From Spirochaetia bacterium (GTDB lineage: Bacteria; Spirochaetota; Spirochaetia; WTKD01; G963693115), in the NCBI GenBank assembly GCA_965196605.1, contig CBDAKK010000008.1, positions 539,257 through 603,256 of the forward strand: 64,000 nt of DNA. The letters run 5' to 3'. The stretch's first letter is position 1, and every line of letters begins with the position of its first letter. The notes under the pieces were generated by a model. The model was not told the origin of the DNA and did not search any database. It saw only the letters and a program-made list of their open reading frames with translations. Positions 8,441-47,328 of the stretch are shown one piece after another. The position numbers and the translations under genes were made by a program.

Positions 8441-8454
8441 GCTTTGGTGCATGC

Positions 8455-9330
8455 TTGCCTTTGTGGGGGGTGTATACCCCCACGCCCCCCGTGGGTAAGA
8501 TGCGCATTTGCGCTACGCGCGCGAGGCTGCACGCCGTGTGTGTTCTGCTTGCGCCGTTTTTTATGAACGCTTCTGCGGCTAAGACGCTAGCGTGCTACCA
8601 GCGGTATTGTATGAACGTCTCTTGTTGCCACGACGTAGGATGCACTATGAAAACATTTCGGACGGCTGTACTTTCTTTTTTCTTTTTTCAAAATAACGCG
8701 AGCAGAGCGAGCGGGCGCCACTGCTAGATAGTGGAGCGTTAGCGAAACATGAAATAGAGCAAGCGACAACAAGAAAGGTACCAAAGAAAAAAAGAAAAAG
8801 GAGCCTGCGGCTACAGCCGCAGGAACAGTGTTACGCTGCACGCAACATATGAAAACTATACACAAATAAGTTTGTGTGAATGGCCTTCCCCCCGGCGCTC
8901 AATGCGTCCCATCCATGGGGCGGCTGTGATGACGCTCACAAGCGTAGCGAGGGGATGCAAACTATTGCATAAGCGCCGCTGTGCGGTGCAAAGATGGAAC
9001 TTGCATCAAAAGAGTCGAGAGCCGAAGGCGACAGCCGTAGCAGGGATGCTACGTATTGGCTGCCATGGATGGTACGGGTGCAAACTACTGCATAAGTGCC
9101 GCGATGCGGCACAAACATGGAACTTGCACCAAAGTCGGGAGCGCTGACAAGCGCGATCGGCTAGAAACAATTAAAATAAGTGTCGCGCAGCGACACAGAC
9201 ATGGAGCTTATAGCAAACTCGCTAGTCTTATGAGATATGACACGGACAACGCGCTTACGCGCGATTATTTTATTTATATCCGTAAGTACCTTGAGGTGCT
9301 ACACACAAGTGGCGCAGATTTGCTTCAGAT
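8455..9330. repeat. composite intergenic repeat cluster 1. Contains the G-rich palindrome module, the 'cacgccgtgtgtgt...cgcgcgtagcgc' module and about three reverse-orientation copies of the ~98-bp 'gcaaactattgcataagcgccgc' unit
   Basis: These modules recur at 17270-17840, 40064-41230, 43300-44110 and 46460-47300 (see findings). The ORFs within are artefacts of the repeats. Confidence 0.8.
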
Positions 9331-9334
9331 GTGG

Positions 9335-9465
9335 GGCTACGCCATAGGGAGCAAGACACGAGTATAGGAAGCTACGCGGGTGAGGCTACGCCATAGGAAC
9401 TAAGATACTGAGTTTAGGAAGCTATGCGGGCGAGGCTACCGCCATAGGGGGTAAGAGACAAGCGC
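9335..9465. repeat. tandem repeat, about 2.7 copies of a ~49-bp unit (ggctacgccataggga.caagacacgagtataggaagctacgcgggtga)
   Basis: Direct reading: copy 1 at 9335-9383, copy 2 at 9384-9433 and a partial copy 3. Confidence 0.8.
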
Positions 9466-9640
9466 AAATTGTAAAAAAGACACCAATGACGAGCGCGCGG
9501 TGCTGGGAAGCTGGCGTGTAGGCACACAAGCTTATATACATGCGTGTTTCTGCACGGGTGGCTTTGCGCTGTGTGCTTTGGTACTCATGGGTGAGGTGTT
9601 GGTGTATGGTGTGTTTGAGTTTGCAGAGCAAAAACGAGAA
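9445..9640. repeat. left copy of a ~190-bp direct repeat flanking the two-lipoprotein cassette (partner at 12525..12740)
   Basis: Shared blocks acaagcgcaaattgt..caccaatgacgag...ggctttgcgctgtgtgctt..., about 70-75% identity with the partner. Confidence 0.7.
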
Positions 9641-9660
9641 AGGTAAAAAATGATTTTTTC

Positions 9661-9689
9661 TTGCAAACTTCCTTTTAGTGAGGTATAAT
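9661..9689 (+). promoter_or_regulatory. consensus sigma70-type promoter, TTGCAA-N17-TATAAT
   Basis: ttgcaa at 9661-9666, an exact 17-nt spacer and tataat at 9684-9689, upstream of a small ORF and the lipoprotein gene at 9981. Confidence 0.6.
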
Positions 9690-9980
9690 TTAATTGCATA
9701 ATTGTTTCATAAATCTTTCATTTTTGGCATAGAGGTAGATATGAATGCTCATAAAAGAAGGGTATTGTTCATTTTCTTTTTTACTCTTACACTCGCTGCA
9801 ACTACATTCTTGTACACAAAAGAGGGCGCGTGCCTACAAGGCCGCGTAGAAGCGCGTACACATGTGCGCATAACCATAACAAATACAGGAGGTGTGGCGT
9901 AGATAAGTCTTGCATATTTTTTCTCAGGTCTGCGTTTTTATGGCGCATAAAACAAAGCGTGAGTTTTATAAGGAGTTATC

Positions 9981-22012: not shown

Positions 22013-22513
22013 TTATGAAAAGAAAAGAATATTTAGTGCTACGAAAGAGGGTTTAAAGAACTTTATTATTTTTTTCTGTACCTTGTTGCCTGCAGAGTCT
22101 ACTACAACCTTGCCATTGTCCTGCATGGTGAGCGTGTCTTTTATGATTCTGCCTCGCACATTTGCAGAGAGCTGTATGGTGCTTGCAGAACCTGTGCTTT
22201 TTTGCGTCCCTGCAAGGTCAAAGCCTTTTTCAAAGCTGCGGCTTGTTTTGTTGCCAAACCACAGAGAACCACGCACGCTGTTGTTTTTTCCGCGTGTAAG
22301 TCGGTATTGCACAATGAGGTTTTTTGTGCCAAGTGCTAGAGAAAAAGAAAGTCGTTTTGCAAAAGGAAGGCTGCGTCCCCCACGAGCTGCCATAGATTTT
22401 GTTTCCATAGGGTCTATGGTTCCTTCATAGGTGCCAAGTGTGTGTTGTGGCGTGTTCTCACAGCTGGTGAAAACAAAGCTTACAGTTAATAAAAAGCATA
22501 AAAGTTTTTTCAT
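22013..22513 (-). CDS. small lipoprotein, tandem paralog family member 1
   Basis: Signal peptide plus lipobox FVFTSC. Shares the G(T)YEGT motif and the C-terminal DNG..L.D..GNK..KK with the two neighbours. Confidence 0.55.
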   Translation of the reverse strand: MKKLLCFLLTVSFVFTSCENTPQHTLGTYEGTIDPMETKSMAARGGRSLPFAKRLSFSLALGTKNLIVQYRLTRGKNNSVRGSLWFGNKTSRSFEKGFDLAGTQKSTGSASTIQLSANVRGRIIKDTLTMQDNGKVVVDSAGNKVQKKIIKFFKPSFVALNILFFS

Positions 22514-22551
22514 ATGTAATTACCTGCCTGCAATAAAGGTGCATAAAAAAA

Positions 22552-22589
22552 CTCCCAAGGCGTAGAGTACGCCCGACGGGAGTTTTTTT
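22552..22589. terminator. bidirectional rho-independent terminator
   Basis: ctcccaaggcgtagagtacgcccgacgggag hairpin flanked by an A-run (22545-22550) and a T-run (22583-22589). Confidence 0.7.
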
Positions 22590-22616
22590 ATATATCAAGG
22601 TTAAACGAGCAATGTG

Positions 22617-23195
22617 CTACTTCTTTTTGAGTTTGTTGCCCATAGAGTCTTCTAATACCGCGCCATTGTCCTTTACCTTCAATTCTCCAGGGACTTTTTT
22701 TCCAAAAGCAGATTTTGGATTTACAACTATTTCTTCCAATTGCTTTTTTACTTTTTTGCGTTGCTCAGGAGATAAAGGTAGGGAGTTTAAAGAAGAAAGT
22801 TGTGTTGTTGCAGTTTTTTTTGTTTCTTCTAGTACTATTTTTTGATCTTCTGTACTTAAGCCTTCCAATGTAGTTTCTAGTGTGTACGCCAATATAACCA
22901 TCCCAGCTCTATCTTCTAAATTTCCTGTTATCTTACCAATCTTGATAAACTTACTATCAAATTTTCTTAAAACAGTTCCAGTAACTTTATTGTTGCTTTC
23001 TCGTTTGAGTTTGAACTGACTAGTTACGTTGTTAGCAGTTCCTTCATACGTGCCGTCTATGTTGACAGACGATGCATTATTGCAGCCCTCCGCTGACATG
23101 GAAATAAGTAGCATGAGACCAAACAAAGCGGCCATTGATGTGATTATTCTTTTCATAGAATACTCCTTTTTATTATTAAAATAATAAGTTGTCAA
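22617..23195 (-). CDS. small lipoprotein, tandem paralog family member 2
   Basis: 192 aa with signal peptide. VNIDGTYEGT and C-terminal KDNGAVLEDSMGNKLKKK, paralogous to 23432..23977. Confidence 0.55.
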   Translation of the reverse strand: MTTYYFNNKKEYSMKRIITSMAALFGLMLLISMSAEGCNNASSVNIDGTYEGTANNVTSQFKLKRESNNKVTGTVLRKFDSKFIKIGKITGNLEDRAGMVILAYTLETTLEGLSTEDQKIVLEETKKTATTQLSSLNSLPLSPEQRKKVKKQLEEIVVNPKSAFGKKVPGELKVKDNGAVLEDSMGNKLKKK

Positions 23196-23373
23196 TACAA
23201 CTTATTATTTATTAATAGTAGGATGCTATGATTTTTTTTCAAGTCTGCGAAGAGAAAAATTATGAAATATTTTCTTGATGAAAGCAACGTGAAAGTGTGC
23301 CTTTATGTAAATAAGGCATTTTATTATTGTGGTGTTTCTTGTGTGTTTTTTTATTACACATGCAATAAAAAAA

Positions 23374-23405
23374 CTCCCACGCGTAGGGTACGCGGGGAGT
23401 TTTAT
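23374..23405. terminator. rho-independent terminator, a duplicate of the 22552 module
   Basis: ctcccacgcgtagggtacgcggggag hairpin with flanking A/T runs, followed by the same 'tatatatcaaggt.aaa..agcaatgtgctacttcttttt' context. Confidence 0.7.
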
Positions 23406-23431
23406 ATATCAAGGTGAAAAAAAGCAATGTG

Positions 23432-23977
23432 CTACTTCTTTTTGTACTTCTTGCCGGCAGGGTCTTCTAAGCTAGCGCCGTTATCAAGTACTTTGAACTT
23501 GGCCGCCTTGTTGTCCTTAAACGTGTACAAAGTTTTGAATTGAGCGAGAACTTTTCCAACTAATGTTGTATCTGCTGTAGCCGCTGCGCTAAACGCCTGC
23601 TTTAATTTTTGATTAATTTTATCGGGAACTTGTTTCCCAAGTTCTTTGTCTTGCACTGGTGTTACGGATGTGTTGAGTGTAATGCCACCTCCTTCATCTT
23701 TTAGGTCTCCCTTTATATCGGCAACTTTAATAAAGCCAAGAAACCCATTGGCGTTCATTTCTATGGTTCCGCTGACCTTTTTATTATTATCGCGTTTCAT
23801 GGTAATCTTAAGGGTGCCTTGGAATTTTTCTTTTCCAATTAGTGTTTTAAAATTCCCAGCTGGTAGTTCATCGGTTCGTTCGTAGGTGCCGTCTACGTTG
23901 ACGTTTGAGGCGCACTGCGCTGAAATAAGTAAAACAAGCCCCAGTAACGAAGCCATTGGTATGATAATTCTCTTCAT
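23432..23977 (-). CDS. small lipoprotein, tandem paralog family member 3
   Basis: 181 aa with signal peptide. VNVDGTYERT and C-terminal LDNGASLEDPAGKKYKKK. Confidence 0.55.
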   Translation of the reverse strand: MKRIIIPMASLLGLVLLISAQCASNVNVDGTYERTDELPAGNFKTLIGKEKFQGTLKITMKRDNNKKVSGTIEMNANGFLGFIKVADIKGDLKDEGGGITLNTSVTPVQDKELGKQVPDKINQKLKQAFSAAATADTTLVGKVLAQFKTLYTFKDNKAAKFKVLDNGASLEDPAGKKYKKK

Positions 23978-24321
23978 AAGAATTTCTCCTTTATATGTGT
24001 GTATTTTTTGAGTTTTTTTTGTAACTACTCTTTAAACAATAATAAGTTTACTTAATGTTTTTAGTCAATAATATTAATGAAAATAAATAAATATTTTTGT
24101 TTTTGTGTAAATAAAAATTTTAATTATGCTATAATAAACCTTTCGTTTTAAGGGTGGTTAGAAAGACTGCTGCATGCATGCTGTTGTCGTGGTACTCATG
24201 CATGTCTTTTTTCAAGGCTGTGCTAGGTTGCAATAATCTTGTTTAGGCGTTTCCTACTGCGCTTAATGGCTTGAGTGTAACTTAAGGCTAACACGTTAGC
24301 ATTGTGAGTAAAAGCTGCATA

Positions 24322-24915
24322 TCAATAATATTTGCTTTCGCGATATGTTTGTTCTCTCATTATTTGCGGGGAAATGAGTCTTAAAAATAAGTCAACATCC
24401 GACTTGTCAAGGTAAATTGGCTCTAAGGTTAACGCCACATTAGAGGTGGAAGTCAAGGAGCCAAACATTATAACCAGCTGGTGTCGCTGCGCGCTTTGAG
24501 AGAAAAAAACAAATACAAGTTCTGCCGAACGCTCTAGTATTGGATAAAAGGTTTTTTCAGGAAAAACCTTTGAAATATGAATGCTTGCATTGAGGTTGTT
24601 TATACTCGTTATTTTCTTTTCTAGGGCTTCTTTGTTGTTCGTTGCTATTCTAGCCCACACGTAGTACTTTTCAAGTGCATCCCGCATCGCTTGTACACTG
24701 GCGGGGTCAAAGTAATAGTAGGCGCTACTGCCTATGGAGTTATAAAATTTTACGTATAAGGCATTATCTTGATAATAAATAGCGCTCTCTTGTTCTACAA
24801 ATTGCTGTGAAGCGCTGTCGTATAATTTATATGTAAATGCTTGGTTCGTAACATCTGTAGCAAAAACCAAAGACACGTGTACGAGTATAAATAACACACT
24901 ACATATTTTTTTCAT
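24322..24915 (-). CDS. hypothetical secreted protein in an AT-rich island
   Basis: 197 aa with signal peptide (VLFILVHVSLVFA). Flanked by intergenic DNA of about 25% GC (24000-24320; 24916-25100). Confidence 0.5.
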   Translation of the reverse strand: MKKICSVLFILVHVSLVFATDVTNQAFTYKLYDSASQQFVEQESAIYYQDNALYVKFYNSIGSSAYYYFDPASVQAMRDALEKYYVWARIATNNKEALEKKITSINNLNASIHISKVFPEKTFYPILERSAELVFVFFSQSAQRHQLVIMFGSLTSTSNVALTLEPIYLDKSDVDLFLRLISPQIMREQTYRESKYY

Positions 24916-39002: not shown

Positions 39003-40058
39003 CTACTGAAGACGTGAAGGCTTCTTAGGCACGCTTATTTCACCAGCAAGCACCTTCGCCTTGTAGGCTTCAACGCTTTCCAAAAACTCTGCTTCTACGT
39101 TAGGGTTTTCTTCGGGAATAGCAACGCCATTATTTGCTAAGGAAAAAATCAAGATCTCCCCTCCGGGAAACTTTCCTTCATGCGAGAGCTGCGCAACATC
39201 ATGAGAAACTACATCCACGCGTTTTACCATGGAAGTGAGCATAACCGACTTTCCGTCAGCGTATACCCCATCTTGATACTGGTCGCGGTCTACCCCTATG
39301 ACCCAAACAGCCTCCCCTGCCAGTACACGATCTTTTGCTTCTTTAATAGCGCCATTACCCGTTGCTCCCGCTGCTGAAAACACCACACTCGCGCCCGCAT
39401 CATACATTTTTGCCGCAAGCGCCTGTCCAATTTGCGGCGCTGCAAAGTCCCCTGCATACTCGACAATAAGTTCAAGATCTGGAGCAACCGCTTTCACACC
39501 TGCCTCAAAGCCCGCTTCAAATCGGTGTATGAGTTCAAACTCCATACCACCTATGAACCCTACTTTTGTTCTACCTTCTGCCTTCGACTGCAAGCCCGCT
39601 ATAATTCCCACCAGAAAAGAACCCTCCTCTTCATTGAAGATTGCGCTTACCACATTGGGGCCTGGAGCTACTGTGTCTACAAGTAGAAACTGCGTGTCGG
39701 GAAAATTCTTTGAGACTTCTGTCATAGCATCTTGAAACAAAAAGCCCGCCGCAACAATAAGCGTAGCACCCTCATCCGCAAGCGTACTCAAGTTTGGAAT
39801 ATAATCCGCATCCGTACCCGACTGCAAATACTTATATTGGCTTTCGGAAAAGCCATGTTCATTTGCAAATCGCTCAATGCCTTCCCACGTACCTTGATTA
39901 AATGAGGCATCATCAATACCCCCTATATCTGTCACCAAAGCAACTGAGAATTGAGGCTCCTCAGCCTTTTTTTCCTTTGTGCACGCAACGGCAAAAAGGA
40001 CTGCTAGCGCTGTGAACACCGCCACATATATATTATGTTTCTTCATACATTCCTCCAA
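39003..40058 (-). CDS. BMP family (TmpC/PnrA-like) purine-nucleoside-binding lipoprotein
   Basis: Lipobox LFAVAC, then FSVALVTDIGGIDDASFNQGTWEGI, closely resembling Treponema TmpC/PnrA. Confidence 0.85.
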   Translation of the reverse strand: MEECMKKHNIYVAVFTALAVLFAVACTKEKKAEEPQFSVALVTDIGGIDDASFNQGTWEGIERFANEHGFSESQYKYLQSGTDADYIPNLSTLADEGATLIVAAGFLFQDAMTEVSKNFPDTQFLLVDTVAPGPNVVSAIFNEEEGSFLVGIIAGLQSKAEGRTKVGFIGGMEFELIHRFEAGFEAGVKAVAPDLELIVEYAGDFAAPQIGQALAAKMYDAGASVVFSAAGATGNGAIKEAKDRVLAGEAVWVIGVDRDQYQDGVYADGKSVMLTSMVKRVDVVSHDVAQLSHEGKFPGGEILIFSLANNGVAIPEENPNVEAEFLESVEAYKAKVLAGEISVPKKPSRLQ

Positions 40059-40063
40059 ATGTT

Positions 40064-41230
40064 TTAACTATTACCATGGTGATGCTTTTGGCTCGTTATG
40101 TAAAGAATGAACATGCCTAAGCCGAGAGTGGGGGAGCTGCCCCCACGCCCCCCTTGGGGTAAGACACGGTATTGCGCATGAGCGCTTTGTGGGTGAGCGC
40201 CCCCCCACCCCCCTTTGGGCAAGACGCCTCTTTGCGCTATGCGCGAGTGTTTGTGCCATGGCTCACGCGATGTGTTGCTCACGCTATTTGTTGCCAAGCA
40301 GCTATTCTAAATACGCTATTCATTCGGATGGCCGTTCTTTCTTTTCTTTTTTACCATCCATGGCAGCCAATGCGCCCCGTCCATGGGGCGGCTGTGATGA
40401 CGCAAAAAGAGTCGAGAGCCGAAGGCGAACGGGTGCAAACTATTGCATAAGTGCCGCAATGCGGCACAAACATGGAACTTGCACCAAAGAAAGAACCAAA
40501 GAAAAGAAAAAAACATCCTGTGTGCTAAAGCAGTAATGGCATAGATACTGTGCGTAAGTATTAAAAAGTACCCAAGAAAGTCACGAACGTAGTGAGGGGA
40601 TGCAAACTATTAAATGGCGGAGCGAAGCGGTCGCTCGCCCCATGGATGGGGCAAATAAGAGCGCCATGGACGGTGCAGAAATGGAGTACTCGCACCAAAG
40701 AAAGAAAGTAAGCTATCCGAAGATTTAGCATATCGCGCTAGCGCCTTAGTCGCAAAAGGCGTTCACGCAATGCTGCGCAAGCAGAACACATACGGCGTTA
40801 GCCCCCGCGCGTGTAGCTCAGTACAGCGTCTTACCGCAGTGGGGGTGTGGGGGCGTGCTGTCCCCACAAAGGCACGTATGGCACGCAGCGTGTTTCTTGT
40901 GTGGTTCGCTCGGTGTCCCTTAAGTGGTATGTGTATGCCTTGCAAGGACGAAAGACGAAAGCCATAGGCGAAATAAGCAACGCGCTAAGGAAACGCTAGG
41001 AAAACGGAAAACGCTTTGCGCAAAGCGTCATTGCGTAAAAAGGGGGCGGTGGGTGGAAAGCCACGCGGCTCGGGGGCTTGGGGCTCAAGTTGTCATGAGC
41101 CTACGCCTCATGTGTATATTCCGCGGCGCGGCTTAAAGCCTCAAGCAGTTGTCCGCTGTCGCTTGTGCTGCGTACTACACGGTAGCATGAGCCCGCCGCG
41201 CCTACATACGCGCCTTAGCTGCTACTTACA
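40064..41230. repeat. composite intergenic repeat cluster 3 (reverse orientation; includes a second sub-copy at 40740-40900)
   Basis: G-rich palindromes at 40130-40215 and 40838-40872, ~98-bp units at 40370-40500 and 40560-40700, and the 'gtgccatggctcacgcgatgtgttgctcacgctatttgttgcca' module. The ORFs within are spurious. Confidence 0.8.
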
Positions 41231-41615: not shown

Positions 41616-41689
41616 TCCTACCCATGTATTGTAGCACCTCTTTCCATTTTTGCGTTACGTCTGCGCGCGTGGACTACACTGAAGAGTAT

Positions 41690-43294
41690 ATGCCTTGCAC
41701 TCCTTCAAAAAACATGCCCCCCCTGTTGCGCGTGCACAACTTGTGTGTAAGCGCACCCCACCATTCACAGCGCATTGTACGTGACGTGTCGTTTTGCATG
41801 CACCGTGGAGAGCACATTGCGGTCATAGGTGACTCGGGCTCGGGGAAAACAACGCTGCTCAAGGCCATTGCGGGGGTTCTCCCTCATGCGTGGCATGCAT
41901 CGGGTTGTGTGCAGGTGCCGCACCATGAGCTTGCGTACATTATGCAAGAGCCCAAGGCAGCGCTTAACCCCATACGCAGCATTAAGGCCATGTTTGCAGC
42001 GCTGCGTCATAGCAGGCGCTTTGCCGGCATGAGCGCAAAGCAAACAAGCGAGCGCATTAGGCAGCGCATGCATGCAGCATTTAATGCAATGAAACTCATT
42101 GACAATGCTGAGGCAGACCTTGCAAAGAACGGGTCGGGCTTTTCGGACTTACACAACTTGCTTGCAAAGCGCCGTACGCAGGTCTCAGGAGGCATGGCGC
42201 AGCGCATTATGGTGGCCTTGGCCATTACTGCGGGTTCTACGGTGGCACTTGCTGATGAAGTGAGTTCCGCGCTCGATGAGAAGCACGAACGCAAAACCAT
42301 TGAGACCTTGCTTGCCGCTATGCAAGGCGTGCTGTTTGTAACGCATAGAATGAACCTTGTTAAGGACTACTGCCATAAAGTGCTGGTGCTTCAGAATGGT
42401 GCAGTGCATTTTTTTGGTGACGTGGCGCAGTGGTTGCGGGAGCACGGTGATGATGAACACAACGCGGCAGGTGTTATGACGGGGCATGCTAGCACGCAAG
42501 GGCGTAAAAAGAGCCATGCGCGCGCTCAAAACGGCAGCACTGCTAGGCATGGCGGGCTTGGTGGCGTTGTGTTGCGCTGTGAGCGCGTAGGCGTGTACTA
42601 TGACAAGCCGTCGTTTTTGCCACGCGCAACAAGCGGTGTGCGCAACTTTGTGCTGCAAGGCCTCAACTTTAGCGCGCGCGCGCGAGAGGTTGTCTTGGTG
42701 CGTGGCGAAACCGGCTGTGGCAAAAGCACCTTTGCGCATGTGTGCGCAGGGCAGCTTCAGCCTTGCACGGGGGCGGTGTGCATGCATAATACCCCCATGC
42801 CCTATGGTTCGGCGCGTGCCATGCGCATTTTTAGGCGGGACGTGCAGCTTATTTCGCAAGTGCCCTCCTTGAGTTTTAACCCGCTGCGCACGGTGCTCAG
42901 CAGCCTCATGGACGCGCACGCCACAATGTCGCGGGCAGAAAAACAGCGCAGTCAGGAGTACCTGCAGCAGCTGTGTAAGACCATGCACATTTCTCAGGCG
43001 CAGCTTGCGCGCTTCCCCCATGAGCTTTCTGGTGGGCAGCTCCAACGCATCGCCATTATACGCGCCTTGCTGCCGCACCCAAACATCCTCATCCTCGACG
43101 AACCGGTGAGTCACTTGGACCCACGCATACGCATACAAGTGTTGGAGCGCATAGCTGCATTGCACGCACAAACGCGCATAACGCTTATTGTTATTTCGCA
43201 CCTTGAGGAGGTATGCGCCTTTATAAAACGTAGCTATGCGCAATACACCGCCTATGCCCTAGAACATGGCGCGCTTGTGCCGCTTGAAACCTAA
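41690..43294 (+). CDS. ABC transporter ATP-binding protein with duplicated NBDs (DppD-DppF fusion, YejF/GsiA-like). No cognate permease is adjacent
   Basis: GDSGSGKTT/VSGGMAQRIMVALAI and GETGCGKST/LSGGQLQRIAIIRAL. The ORF-track start is 41624; the likely start is MPCTPSK or MPPLL. The gene is notably GC-rich (about 60%). Confidence 0.7.
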   Translation: MPCTPSKNMPPLLRVHNLCVSAPHHSQRIVRDVSFCMHRGEHIAVIGDSGSGKTTLLKAIAGVLPHAWHASGCVQVPHHELAYIMQEPKAALNPIRSIKAMFAALRHSRRFAGMSAKQTSERIRQRMHAAFNAMKLIDNAEADLAKNGSGFSDLHNLLAKRRTQVSGGMAQRIMVALAITAGSTVALADEVSSALDEKHERKTIETLLAAMQGVLFVTHRMNLVKDYCHKVLVLQNGAVHFFGDVAQWLREHGDDEHNAAGVMTGHASTQGRKKSHARAQNGSTARHGGLGGVVLRCERVGVYYDKPSFLPRATSGVRNFVLQGLNFSARAREVVLVRGETGCGKSTFAHVCAGQLQPCTGAVCMHNTPMPYGSARAMRIFRRDVQLISQVPSLSFNPLRTVLSSLMDAHATMSRAEKQRSQEYLQQLCKTMHISQAQLARFPHELSGGQLQRIAIIRALLPHPNILILDEPVSHLDPRIRIQVLERIAALHAQTRITLIVISHLEEVCAFIKRSYAQYTAYALEHGALVPLET

Positions 43295-43299
43295 GGCTT

Positions 43300-44058
43300 C
43301 ACATGTGAAAGGTTGCCTTGTGTGGCACGCCCCTGCAAAGGCAAGGCACAGGGTGCGGCGCTCCACCGTAGCGTAGTGCTAGGGAGTCTGACAGCACTAT
43401 GTCAGAGAGTCTGACAGCACTATGTCAGGGAGTCTGACGGCACTATGTCAGACACCACCGTAGCATAGTGCGGTACTCCACCGCAGCATAGTGCGCTGCC
43501 GCCTTGCCACATGTGCTAAGACACAGCCCCCCGCAGCACTGAGACGTGTAAGCTGCACGCCGTGTGTGTGATGGCTCACGCTATTTGTACCATTCATGGC
43601 ACACAATGTGTCCCATGAATGGTGAGCAGCGCACTCACACAAACTTACTTCCATACAATCTTCATACTTGCGCACAGTATCTATGTTATTATTGCTTTAG
43701 CACACAGGATGTTTTCTTTTCTTTCTTTGGTTCTTTTCTTTCTTTTCTTTTCCGTCCTGAAAAGAAAAGAAAGAAAGAACGGCCAACCGAAGTGTTTGCT
43801 TAGTGCGCTCACGTCATGGCAACAAGAGGCGTTCACGCAATACTGCGCAAGCAAAACACACACGGCGTGCAGCCTACCCGCGCGTAGCGCAATATAGCGT
43901 CTTACCCCAAGGGGGGTGTGGGGGCGCTCCCCCACAAAGCGCTTATGCACATATAGCGTCTTACCCCAAGGGGGGGGGTGGGGGCGCTCCCCCACAAAGG
44001 CAAGACACAACGCTATGTGGTATGAAGGGTAGTTGCTTTATATATCATGCTTACATTT
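43300..44058. repeat. composite intergenic repeat cluster 4, bounded by 38-bp perfect direct repeats (43241..43278 and 44061..44098)
   Basis: Contains the 23-bp array, the 'gtgatggctcacgctatttgt' module, the 20-bp-arm hairpin 'ttctttctttcttttcttttccgtcctgaaaagaaaagaaagaaagaa' and two G-rich palindromes (43915-43990). Confidence 0.8.
43381..43449. repeat. three tandem 23-bp units, each containing the palindrome CTGACAgcactaTGTCAG
   Basis: Units at 43381-43403, 43404-43426 and 43427-43449, flanked by 'ccaccgtagcatagtgc' motifs (43362, 43454, 43476) that are complementary to the unit core. Confidence 0.85.
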
Positions 44059-44129
44059 GTGCAGTACACCGCCTATGCCCTAGAACATGGCGCGCTTGTG
44101 CGTCTTGAGAATAAAAGTTTACTTTGTGC

Positions 44130-45173
44130 TTATTGTAAGCGCGTTGGTACTTTTGGTATGGTAAGTTTGCCCGATAATACCTGTTGTTTGTAGCGCGATA
44201 CGAGCTCTAAAAATTCCGCGCTTACGTTGGGGTTTTCTTGTGGTATACCCACACCTCCGTTTTCTAGCGAGAATGTAAGTACTTTTCCACCAGGAAAATT
44301 GCCTTGCTTTGCTAAGTTTGCAACATTGTGTGTGGCAACATCTACGCGTTTTACCATGGAGCTGAGAATTACAGATTTGTCTTTAGCGTAAATGCCTTCT
44401 TCATATTGGTCTCTATCAACCCCAATAATCCATACACGTTCTCCGTTTAGTGCACGATCCTTCGCTTCTTTAATAGCACCGTTTCCAGTAGTTGCAGCTG
44501 CGTGAAAAATCACGCCAACGCCAGCGTCGTACATTTTTGCAGCAAAGGCTTGTCCAAGGGACGGGGCAGAAAAGTCAGCGGCGTATTCCACAAGTATTTC
44601 TAAATCTGGTGCAACTGTTTTCACGCCTTTTTCAAACCCGGCTTCAAAACGATGTATCACATCAAATTCCATTCCACCGATAAAGCCTACTTTTTCTTTC
44701 CTTTCTGCTTGTGATTGAAGCCCCGCTATAACTCCAACGAGGAATGAGCCTTCTTCTTCTTTAAACACAGCGCTTACAACATTGGGCTTTGGGACGGCGG
44801 TGTCAATGATGAGAAACTGTTTGGTGGGGAAATTTTGAGCAACTTTTGTAATGGCTTCGGTAAATGTAAAGCCCGCCGCCACAATAAGTGTTGTATCGTT
44901 GTCGGCAAGTGCGCTCAAATTTGGAAGATAATCGGAATGAGTACTTGATTGCACATAGGTATACTGCGCCTTTGAGAGATTTTCTTGAGATGCAAATTTT
45001 GTAATACCTTCCCATGCGCTTTGATTAAACGCCTTGTCATCAATGCCACCTATGTCGGTTACGAGCCCCACAGAAAATGACGTAGATTGTTTTTTAGTAC
45101 AGGCGTTTAAACCGCCTCCCATGATCAATGCTATTGATAGTATGTAGAAAGTCGTCTTCATAAGTTCCCCCAT
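44130..45173 (-). CDS. BMP family lipoprotein, orphan paralog of 39003..40058
   Basis: Lipobox GLNAC, then FSVGLVTDIGGIDDKAFNQSAWEGI. About 60% identical to the first BMP protein, with no adjacent transporter genes. Confidence 0.85.
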   Translation of the reverse strand: MGELMKTTFYILSIALIMGGGLNACTKKQSTSFSVGLVTDIGGIDDKAFNQSAWEGITKFASQENLSKAQYTYVQSSTHSDYLPNLSALADNDTTLIVAAGFTFTEAITKVAQNFPTKQFLIIDTAVPKPNVVSAVFKEEEGSFLVGVIAGLQSQAERKEKVGFIGGMEFDVIHRFEAGFEKGVKTVAPDLEILVEYAADFSAPSLGQAFAAKMYDAGVGVIFHAAATTGNGAIKEAKDRALNGERVWIIGVDRDQYEEGIYAKDKSVILSSMVKRVDVATHNVANLAKQGNFPGGKVLTFSLENGGVGIPQENPNVSAEFLELVSRYKQQVLSGKLTIPKVPTRLQ

Positions 45174-46457: not shown

Positions 46458-46459
46458 GT

Positions 46460-47300
46460 GCCTTGTGGGGGCACGCCCCCACACCCCCGCGCGTCTTGAG
46501 TGCTAAGCACGGGTTACTTCGTGTTTGTTGCTTACGCTATTTGTGCCATCCATGGCACAGTTGTCGCCTTCGGCTCTCCACTCTTTTGATGCAAGCTCCA
46601 TGTTTGCACCGCACAGCGGCGCTTATGCAATAGTTTGCATCCCCTCGCTACGCTCGCGACTTTTTGGTTCTTTTTCTTTTCTTTTGATGCAAGTTCCATG
46701 TTTGTGCCGCATTGCGGCACTTATGCAACAGTTTGCATCCCCTCGCTACGCTCGCGACTTTTTGGTTCTTTTTCTTTTCTTTTGATGCAAGTTCCATGTT
46801 TGTGCCGCATTGCGGCACTTATGCAACAGTTTGCATCCCCTCGCTACGCTCGTGACTTTGGTACTTTCTTCTTTGGCGCGAGTATTCATACAAACTTACT
46901 TACATACAATCTTCATACTTGCGTAGAGTAGCTATGTTATTACTGCTTTAGCACACAGGAGGCTTTTTTCTCTTTTCTTTGGTACTTTCTTTTCTCTTTT
47001 TTGCATCCATAAAAAAGAGAAAAGAAAGTACAGCCGTCCGAGGCATCATCATATCGCGTCACGCGCCGTGGCAACACAGAGCGTGAGCAACATACCGCGT
47101 GAGCCATCACACACACGGCGTGTAGCTTACTCGCGCGTAAGCGCAGAACGACCAGCAGTAGGGGTGTGGGGGCGTGCTGCCCCCACAAAGGCACGCGTGG
47201 AGCGCAAACAAGGGGGGTGGGTGGGGTGTTATTGCTATAAAATGGGTATTGTCGTATTCTTTTAGGTAGTGATACTTGGGTATTGCGGGTGCTATGTTCC
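46460..47300. repeat. composite intergenic repeat cluster 5, including three tandem ~98-bp units at 46583..46876
   Basis: G-rich palindromes at 46465-46495 and 47160-47225. Units 2 and 3 (46681-46778, 46779-46876) are near-identical. Hairpin 'ctttcttttctcttttttgcatccataaaaaagagaaaagaaag' at about 46985-47030. Confidence 0.85.
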
Positions 47301-47328
47301 CTTGTTTGTGGATATAGTCCTAGTATGA

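Follow-up and report, generated by a model that had tools for sequence, protein, structure and literature searches.

In Proteobacteria, REP and BIME elements are extragenic palindromes of ~20–40 bp that occur in tens to hundreds of copies per genome, together with a RAYT (Y1 transposase) and a conserved adjacent GTAG. The iterons of plasmids and origins, such as those of RK2, R6K and pSC101, are 17–22-bp repeats with a period of ~22–23 bp; they are asymmetric sites for monomeric Rep and lie beside a rep gene, DnaA boxes and an AT-rich region. Here we compare with these systems an array located in a 64-kb stretch of spirochaetal DNA (the window), composed of three palindromic units, termed B, flanked by three units termed A. 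By analogy, the array would work most like REP/BIME hairpins, which it resembles in its short extragenic palindromes (20 bp, able to form hairpins), its mosaic arrangement with other motifs, its lineage specificity, its site at gene 3′ ends between convergent genes and the possibility of stem-loops in mRNA. It differs in that its A and B units show no dispersal within the 64 kb, whereas the neighbouring repeat elements R and S do; in the direct tandem orientation of its units, where REPs alternate in orientation; in that the scanned ORFs of the window include no RAYT/Y1 transposase; and in its host, a spirochaete. GTAG occurs in units A1 and A2 and is missing from A3 and from every B unit.

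The direct repeats and their ~23-bp period, roughly two helical turns, recall iterons, but the array units are perfect palindromes in a GC-rich region that lacks a rep gene and shows no enrichment of DnaA boxes. The likeness to VNTR minisatellites generated by slipped-strand mispairing extends to near-identical head-to-tail copies in non-coding DNA (three, 92–96% identical) and to older, diverged neighbouring units; the palindromes are perfect, as after quasipalindrome correction by template switching, and many other tandem duplications surround them. Nothing essential sets the array apart from VNTR minisatellites, and it is known from one assembly. Our preferred reading, to which we assign a probability of roughly 0.6, is that the array is a hairpin minisatellite, specific to this lineage, within a non-coding spacer prone to repeats. 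Its anatomy, its uniqueness within 64 kb, its absence from relatives, its repeat-cluster context and its folding potential are direct observations, set out below.

Tandem Repeats Finder reports 3.0 copies of a 23-bp period at 43384–43452 (matches 93%, score 124), which bears out the three-copy palindromic array of the initial annotation. The 6-6-6 inverted repeat proposed there (CTGACA-N6-TGTCAG) is better read as 7-6-7: each B unit is the perfect palindrome TCTGACA-GCACTA-TGTCAGA followed by a GAG linker. The three B units (43384–43452, + strand) thus contain 20-bp palindromes at 43387–43406, 43410–43429 and 43433–43452 with GAG linkers between them. The palindrome is truly 7-6-7 in units B1 and B3, and B3 carries a single stem change, A>G at 43439. 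Allowing at most one mismatch, CTGACA-N6-TGTCAG has three matches in the 64-kb window, all within the array (43388, 43411 and 43434), against 0.13 expected from dinucleotide shuffles, none of 100 of which reached three.

The flanking motif CCACCGYAGCRTAGTGC likewise has three matches in the window (43363, 43455 and 43478), against 0.03 expected. These starts differ by one or two bases from the 43362, 43454 and 43476 given initially, and the flank string ccaccgtagcatagtgc is exact only at 43455, the other two copies each differing by one base. Start-to-start spacings of the A units are 92 bp, i.e. 4 × 23, and 23 bp. Because the A flanks share the 23-bp register of B, the whole array can be described as six units, A-B-B-B-A-A, spanning 43358–43495: unit A1 (GCGCTCCACCGTAGCGTAGTGCT) at 43358–43380, then the B units, then A2 and A3 at 43450–43495, all on the + strand, with a degenerate additional A-like piece at 43528. 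A2 and A3 each contain CATAGTGC, complementary to the B loop and right stem. The 8-mer 'catagtgc', said to occur three times in the flanks, is exact at 43464 and 43487, but the first flank reads 'cgtagtgc'. The claimed complementarity between flanks and units stands for 8 nt (GCACTATG/CATAGTGC; exact in A2 and A3, one mismatch in A1) and does not span the whole 17-mer; in RNA, the A:B duplex reaches 9–10 pairs if G-U pairs are counted. Counting the one-mismatch A1 copy, CATAGTGC occurs six times at 22–24-bp spacing in the orientation + − − − + +. It is unlikely that the 8-nt complementarity between A and B arose by chance.

Copy identities among the B units (92–96%) exceed those among the A units (70–85%), so that B appears to be a younger amplification within an older A-type array. 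For the B unit, a better alignment is obtained with A in reverse complement (GCACTATG, a 4–7-nt gap, GGAGT) than with A itself; its score is 12, shuffles average 6.4, and 73 of 2000 of them score as high (p about 0.04). The comparison is modest evidence, suggestive of homology between B units and inverted A units. As the simplest history we infer one in which an A-type unit inside the array would have been inverted, the inverted unit would then have been converted into a perfect palindrome by template switching, and replication slippage would finally have amplified this B palindrome to three copies. Inversion of an A unit would account for both the common 23-bp register and the complementarity of flanks and units.

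The array sits in an 835-bp non-coding spacer (43295–44129) between the 3′ ends of two converging genes, a two-domain ABC ATPase on the + strand (41624–43294) and a Bmp/PnrA-type substrate-binding protein, Bmp2, on the − strand (44130–45173). It had been placed directly 3′ of the ABC ATPase gene and inside repeat cluster 4, and rightly so: the ABC stop codon ends at 43294, and the window has five mosaic repeat clusters, of which this spacer is the fourth. No sigma-70-like promoter was found in 43000–44400 on either strand. The same interval contains three terminator-like sites, none of them within the array (the nearest to 43355–43500 lies at 43566–43581), and no U-tract follows any array hairpin. 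The small ORFs of the spacer have no Pfam match, and the array-bearing stretch 43295–43545 has no match elsewhere in the 64-kb window.

The array is held within a self-complementary block of ~216 bp (43300–43515, no strand assigned) that is bounded by two CACATGTG palindromes; CACATGTG has three copies in the window, two of them flanking the array, and 8 of 100 shuffles give at least three. To the left of the array, the hairpin TGCCTTGT...GCAAGGCA (43314–43348, +), which forms the helix 43314–43321/43341–43348 in the RNA fold, appears by eye to resemble a degenerate 3′ tail of element R ('CACAAAGGCAAG'). On its right lies an inverted partial copy of an internal R segment (43519–43581, −), which forms a 25-nt inverted repeat with 43856–43880 and of which 43545–43581 matches 47133–47097 at 95%. 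Then comes a full R copy (43635–44000, +) with a tandemly duplicated tail (43892–43939 and 43951–43999), matching 46886–47190 over its stretch 43635–43939 (75% over 313 bp).

Two direct copies of a 58-bp piece of the ABC 3′ end enclose the entire 835-bp cluster. The left copy (43238–43295, +) is the functional end of the gene, and the right, non-functional copy (44059–44116, +) occupies the ancestral position beside the Bmp2 stop codon, its translated remnant reading QYTAYALEHGALV. Self-BLAST aligns 43237–43287 with 44058–44108 at 92% identity, including 37 identical nucleotides (43244–43280 and 44065–44101). The duplication has the look of an att-like scar, or else of a long target duplication, left by the insertion that created the cluster. 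The ABC ATPase gene itself has a GC content of 0.53–0.61 and encodes a protein only 53–58% identical to its orthologues, while its neighbours are better conserved (MreB, 97% to the closest entry of the protein collection; Bmp, 64–77%); the ABC gene may evolve rapidly or be influenced by the repeats that flank it.

The five intergenic repeat clusters (8441–9980, 17389–18358, 40059–41225, 43295–44129 and 46458–47328) measure 0.8–1.5 kb each. Although together they occupy just 8.4% of the window, nine of its ten tandem repeats with a score of at least 50 fall within them, with periods of 16, 17, 23, 50, 60 and 98 bp. Their GC content is 0.43–0.53, compared with 0.446 in the rest of the window. 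Two dispersed modules, R and S, are shared among them. Element R is non-coding, ~330–470 bp long and present in five copies in 64 kb at 70–80% identity, at about 8446–8890 (−), 17363–17835 (+), 40128–40887 (−), 43635–44000 (+) and 46886–47206 (+). It retains a polypyrimidine/polypurine stem, the loop of which takes inserts of 0–150 nt, and a GTGGGGG...CCCCCAC hairpin with variable loops; it has no Rfam match and is absent from the syntenic loci of relatives. Module S is 98 bp long and contains a GTGCCGC-ATT-GCGGCAC hairpin; it occurs in tandem (3× and 1.9×) and dispersed among the clusters (46582–46874, 17421–17604, 8936–9133 and 40406–40611). Hairpins are thus found in other tandem units of the clusters as well, for example in the 98-bp × 3 array at 46582–46874. 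Elsewhere in the window, 22013–24915 holds four successive small − strand ORFs (166–197 aa) with no Pfam match, and a 114-bp repeat lies at 22543–22655 and 23365–23470.

The ABC protein has a single occurrence in the protein collection, on a contig of 1,144,098 bp, the next relatives being 53% identical; the collections include only one assembly of the window's lineage. The nearest named MreB homologues (~62–65% identity) belong to Spirochaetales and Alkalispirochaetaceae, and the host is accordingly an uncultured spirochaete of small genome size. Two relatives, L004 and L005 (contigs of 1.80 and 1.85 Mb), share the gene order of the window (Bmp, GcvH, ABC ATPase, M23 peptidase, TPR protein, MreB), with ~20 bp between the ABC and M23 genes and no second Bmp gene. 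This second Bmp/PnrA paralogue (44130–45173), which lies between ABC and M23 in the window and is 67% identical in protein to the first (39003–40058), is also present in a third relative, the 2.8-kb Logan contig L054. The latter encodes proteins with 77% (Bmp2), 58% (C-terminal half of ABC) and 66% (M23) identity to those of the window, and its ABC and Bmp2 genes converge as in the window, with a 53-bp AT-rich spacer between the stops. The array is absent from all three relatives sharing the gene order (spacers of 20–53 bp), and the repeat-cluster sequence of the window has no match in their loci except for 39 bp that precede the TPR gene, so that the array and the whole spacer are specific to the window's lineage. 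A search of genome contigs for the orthologous locus returned only relatives at 23–31% identity. At three comparable spacers the 1.8-Mb relatives have 20–130 bp, which indicates that intergenic spacers have expanded in the smaller (1.14-Mb) genome. At ~40–45 kb of the window, GC skew changes sign and cumulative skew has a local minimum, and ~19 kb of − strand genes give way to ~17 kb of + strand genes; the relatives share this strand switch.

Beyond the window, the metagenome collection contains 47 single matches to an 18-mer of the B unit and the viral collection just one, never more than one per locus. The metagenome matches that were inspected have flanks unrelated to the array, and by a rough estimate of ours 47 is close to the chance number for a collection near 10^12 bases. 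The scattered single matches led us to reject the B unit as a widespread element. A phage or plasmid origin of the spacer was rejected as well, BLAST of the spacer against plasmid and phage records having returned no match.

The suggestion that the region could fold extensively is borne out computationally. As + strand RNA, 43295–43530 has a minimum free energy of −101.3 kcal/mol against −86.5 ± 4.9 for shuffles (z = −3.0), compared with z = −2.15 for the − strand. The minimum-free-energy structure is one nested rod, in which 43300–43307 pairs with 43508–43515 (CACAUGUG at 43300 with CACAUGUG at 43508) and 43309–43313 with 43501–43505; the partners of A1 lie within and beyond A2 and A3, B1 and B3 are joined through their arms (left B1 with right B3) and B2 folds back on itself as a hairpin. 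A structure with three separate B hairpins lies only 3.5 kcal/mol above this one. For single B hairpins the predicted energies are −8.5 to −11.9 kcal/mol in RNA but no stronger than −4.2 to −6.0 kcal/mol in DNA, and A:B RNA duplexes reach −14.3 to −14.9 kcal/mol. Two variants, at 43439 in B3 and the G at 43373 in A1, keep their pairing as G-U on the + strand only, as expected from selection on ABC-sense RNA, but two such cases would arise by chance about one time in four. Folding of this strength is largely what tandem palindromes beside inverted copies should show, and taken alone it is no sign of function.

Several other classes were considered and set aside. A CRISPR array was rejected (no spacers, units abutting with a 3-bp linker), as was a coding repeat: a 23-bp period is not divisible by 3 and could give no repeated peptide, and the spacer ORFs lack a Pfam match. 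An intrinsic terminator does not fit, as 43355–43500 contains no terminator-like site and no U-tract. Neither the array nor the spacer matches Rfam at the gathering score, and a known RNA family was rejected after a permissive Rfam search in which the sole overlapping match scored 16.5 bits (E = 4.4). CIRCE/HrcA was considered for a likeness by eye to AGCACT/AGTGCT, and rejected for its wrong arrangement and spacing and the lack of a chaperone gene.

In the initial annotation, the favoured reading was an array of operators or iterons bound by a dimeric protein, with a Crp/Fnr protein among the candidates. Crp-family proteins recognize TGTGA-N6-TCACA and CooA recognizes TGTCA-N6-TGACA (PMC5371261). 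The array shares a 5-6-5 dyad with such operators, and its letters TGTCA and TGACA are those of the CooA half-sites, but within the B unit the half-sites are swapped (TGACA-N6-TGTCA), and across unit junctions the CooA-like orientation is correct with an N7 spacer (TGTCA-N7-TGACA). In our own alignment, the G that we take to be conserved in both CRP and FNR consensus sites is a C in the array. Relaxing the search to TGACA-N6-TGTCA with one mismatch still recovers only the three array units in 64 kb, against 1.86 expected. Two adjacent genes of the window, 62654–63310 (−) and 63300–63830 (−), encode proteins with a cNMP-binding domain, and one of these proteins has a weak Crp-type helix-turn-helix match (24.6 bits, under the Pfam cut-off of 27). 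The Crp-like gene, 62654–63310 (−), lies 19 kb from the array, and in its putative recognition helix the product has A, K and D at the positions that we align by eye with R180, E181 and R185 of CRP; by this alignment the canonical base-contacting residues of CRP are missing. A Crp/Fnr or CooA operator was rejected for the misfit in orientation and spacing, the lack of a promoter and of any other site in 64 kb. The motif search that had been proposed for defining a regulon finds, within the 64-kb window, the three array units and nothing else. The operator/iteron reading is not supported, there being no promoter, no further site in 64 kb and no counterpart in relatives, and the evidence favours the fallback offered with it, namely that a motif occurring only here is a local tandem duplication.

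Among the rival explanations, the array could be a functional REP/BIME-like 3′-UTR element, its stem-loops and A pairing selected to stabilize or terminate the ABC transcript or to insulate the two genes. It begins ~65–90 nt past the ABC stop codon, between convergent genes, a typical REP/BIME setting, and the hairpin and block energies, the stronger z-score of the + strand and the G-U-compatible variants point the same way; against this, the hairpins lack a U-tract and the array a terminator-like site, the orthologous genes of three relatives manage with spacers of 20–53 bp, the unit is not dispersed within 64 kb and any tandem palindrome is expected to fold strongly, so that we regard selection for such a role as rather unlikely. 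Very doubtful is a foldback, MITE-like and non-autonomous insertion spanning 43300–43515, with terminal inverted repeats containing CACATGTG, that landed past the ABC stop codon. The terminal CACATGTGAAAGG and CCTTGCCACATGTG do pair together in the fold, two of the three CACATGTG copies of the window flank the array and the block begins 6 nt past the stop, but the 64 kb holds no second copy of the block, the inspected metagenome matches and the viral scan yielded no B unit with related flanks, no clear target-site duplication is present, and shuffles reach three CACATGTG copies often enough (8 of 100) to weaken that argument.

Cooperative binding of a protein, whether to the six CATAGTGC motifs or to the three TGACA-N6-TGTCA dyads, is in our judgement improbable. 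A dimeric regulator, a partition or centromere-binding protein or a recombinase could be imagined, the last with arm-type sites beside the att-like 58-bp duplication, and the perfect dyads, the 23-bp period, the regular recurrence of the 8-mer and the bracketing of the cluster by a duplicated gene 3′ end, as with the att sites of integrated elements, would suit such binding. Yet no promoter is nearby, no other site occurs in 64 kb, the ORFs scanned in the window include no integrase, transposase, Rep or Par gene and no regulator besides the distant Crp-like protein, and the array is absent from relatives; the half-site misfit and, by eye, the residues of the Crp-like protein count against the Crp/Fnr and CooA version. 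Further-reaching is the idea of a functional module in which six phased CATAGTGC copies, three in hairpin loops and three single-stranded and complementary, would serve as a protein platform or form a triple loop-to-strand pseudoknotted RNA, as part of a small non-autonomous element integrated at the ABC 3′ end with the 58-bp duplication as its att-like scar; we consider it a long shot. Least credible, with a next to negligible probability, are replication-origin iterons. The idea came from the local cumulative GC-skew minimum near 40–45 kb, where long gene blocks diverge, and was dropped because DnaA boxes are at chance (15 in the window against 16.1 expected, unclustered) and the array region is GC-rich (0.51–0.54), with no AT-rich unwinding element; moreover, the window contains neither dnaA nor a rep gene, and the relatives with the same strand switch have spacers of 20–130 bp, too small for an origin.

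Under the minisatellite reading, the array would form the core of the ~216-bp self-complementary block inside an 835-bp, lineage-specific non-coding cluster and would have no sequence-specific regulatory role. The only likely effect would be structural, a stable stem-loop block on the 3′ end of the ABC mRNA if transcription reads into it, which could act like REP/BIME hairpins as a barrier to exonucleases or to convergent read-through. Against the minisatellite reading stand the near-perfect state of all three palindromes, the G-U-compatible variants, a + strand that folds better than its shuffles and the 8-nt match between A and B, which chance would seldom give.

The array should neither receive an operator annotation nor serve as the starting point of a regulon search, and in itself it matters little, being one more hairpin-forming tandem duplication in non-coding DNA. 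Its context is mildly informative for symbiont genome evolution, as a 1.14-Mb spirochaete genome carries mosaic repeat spacers of ~0.8–1.5 kb that are GC-richer. Genome reduction is usually pictured as accompanied by compaction, and expanded spacers in the smaller genome run counter to that picture. Should the array prove functional, it would exemplify a REP-like system beyond the Proteobacteria, and if the functional-module reading were true, reduced spirochaete genomes would have a REP-like or integrative element of a new kind.
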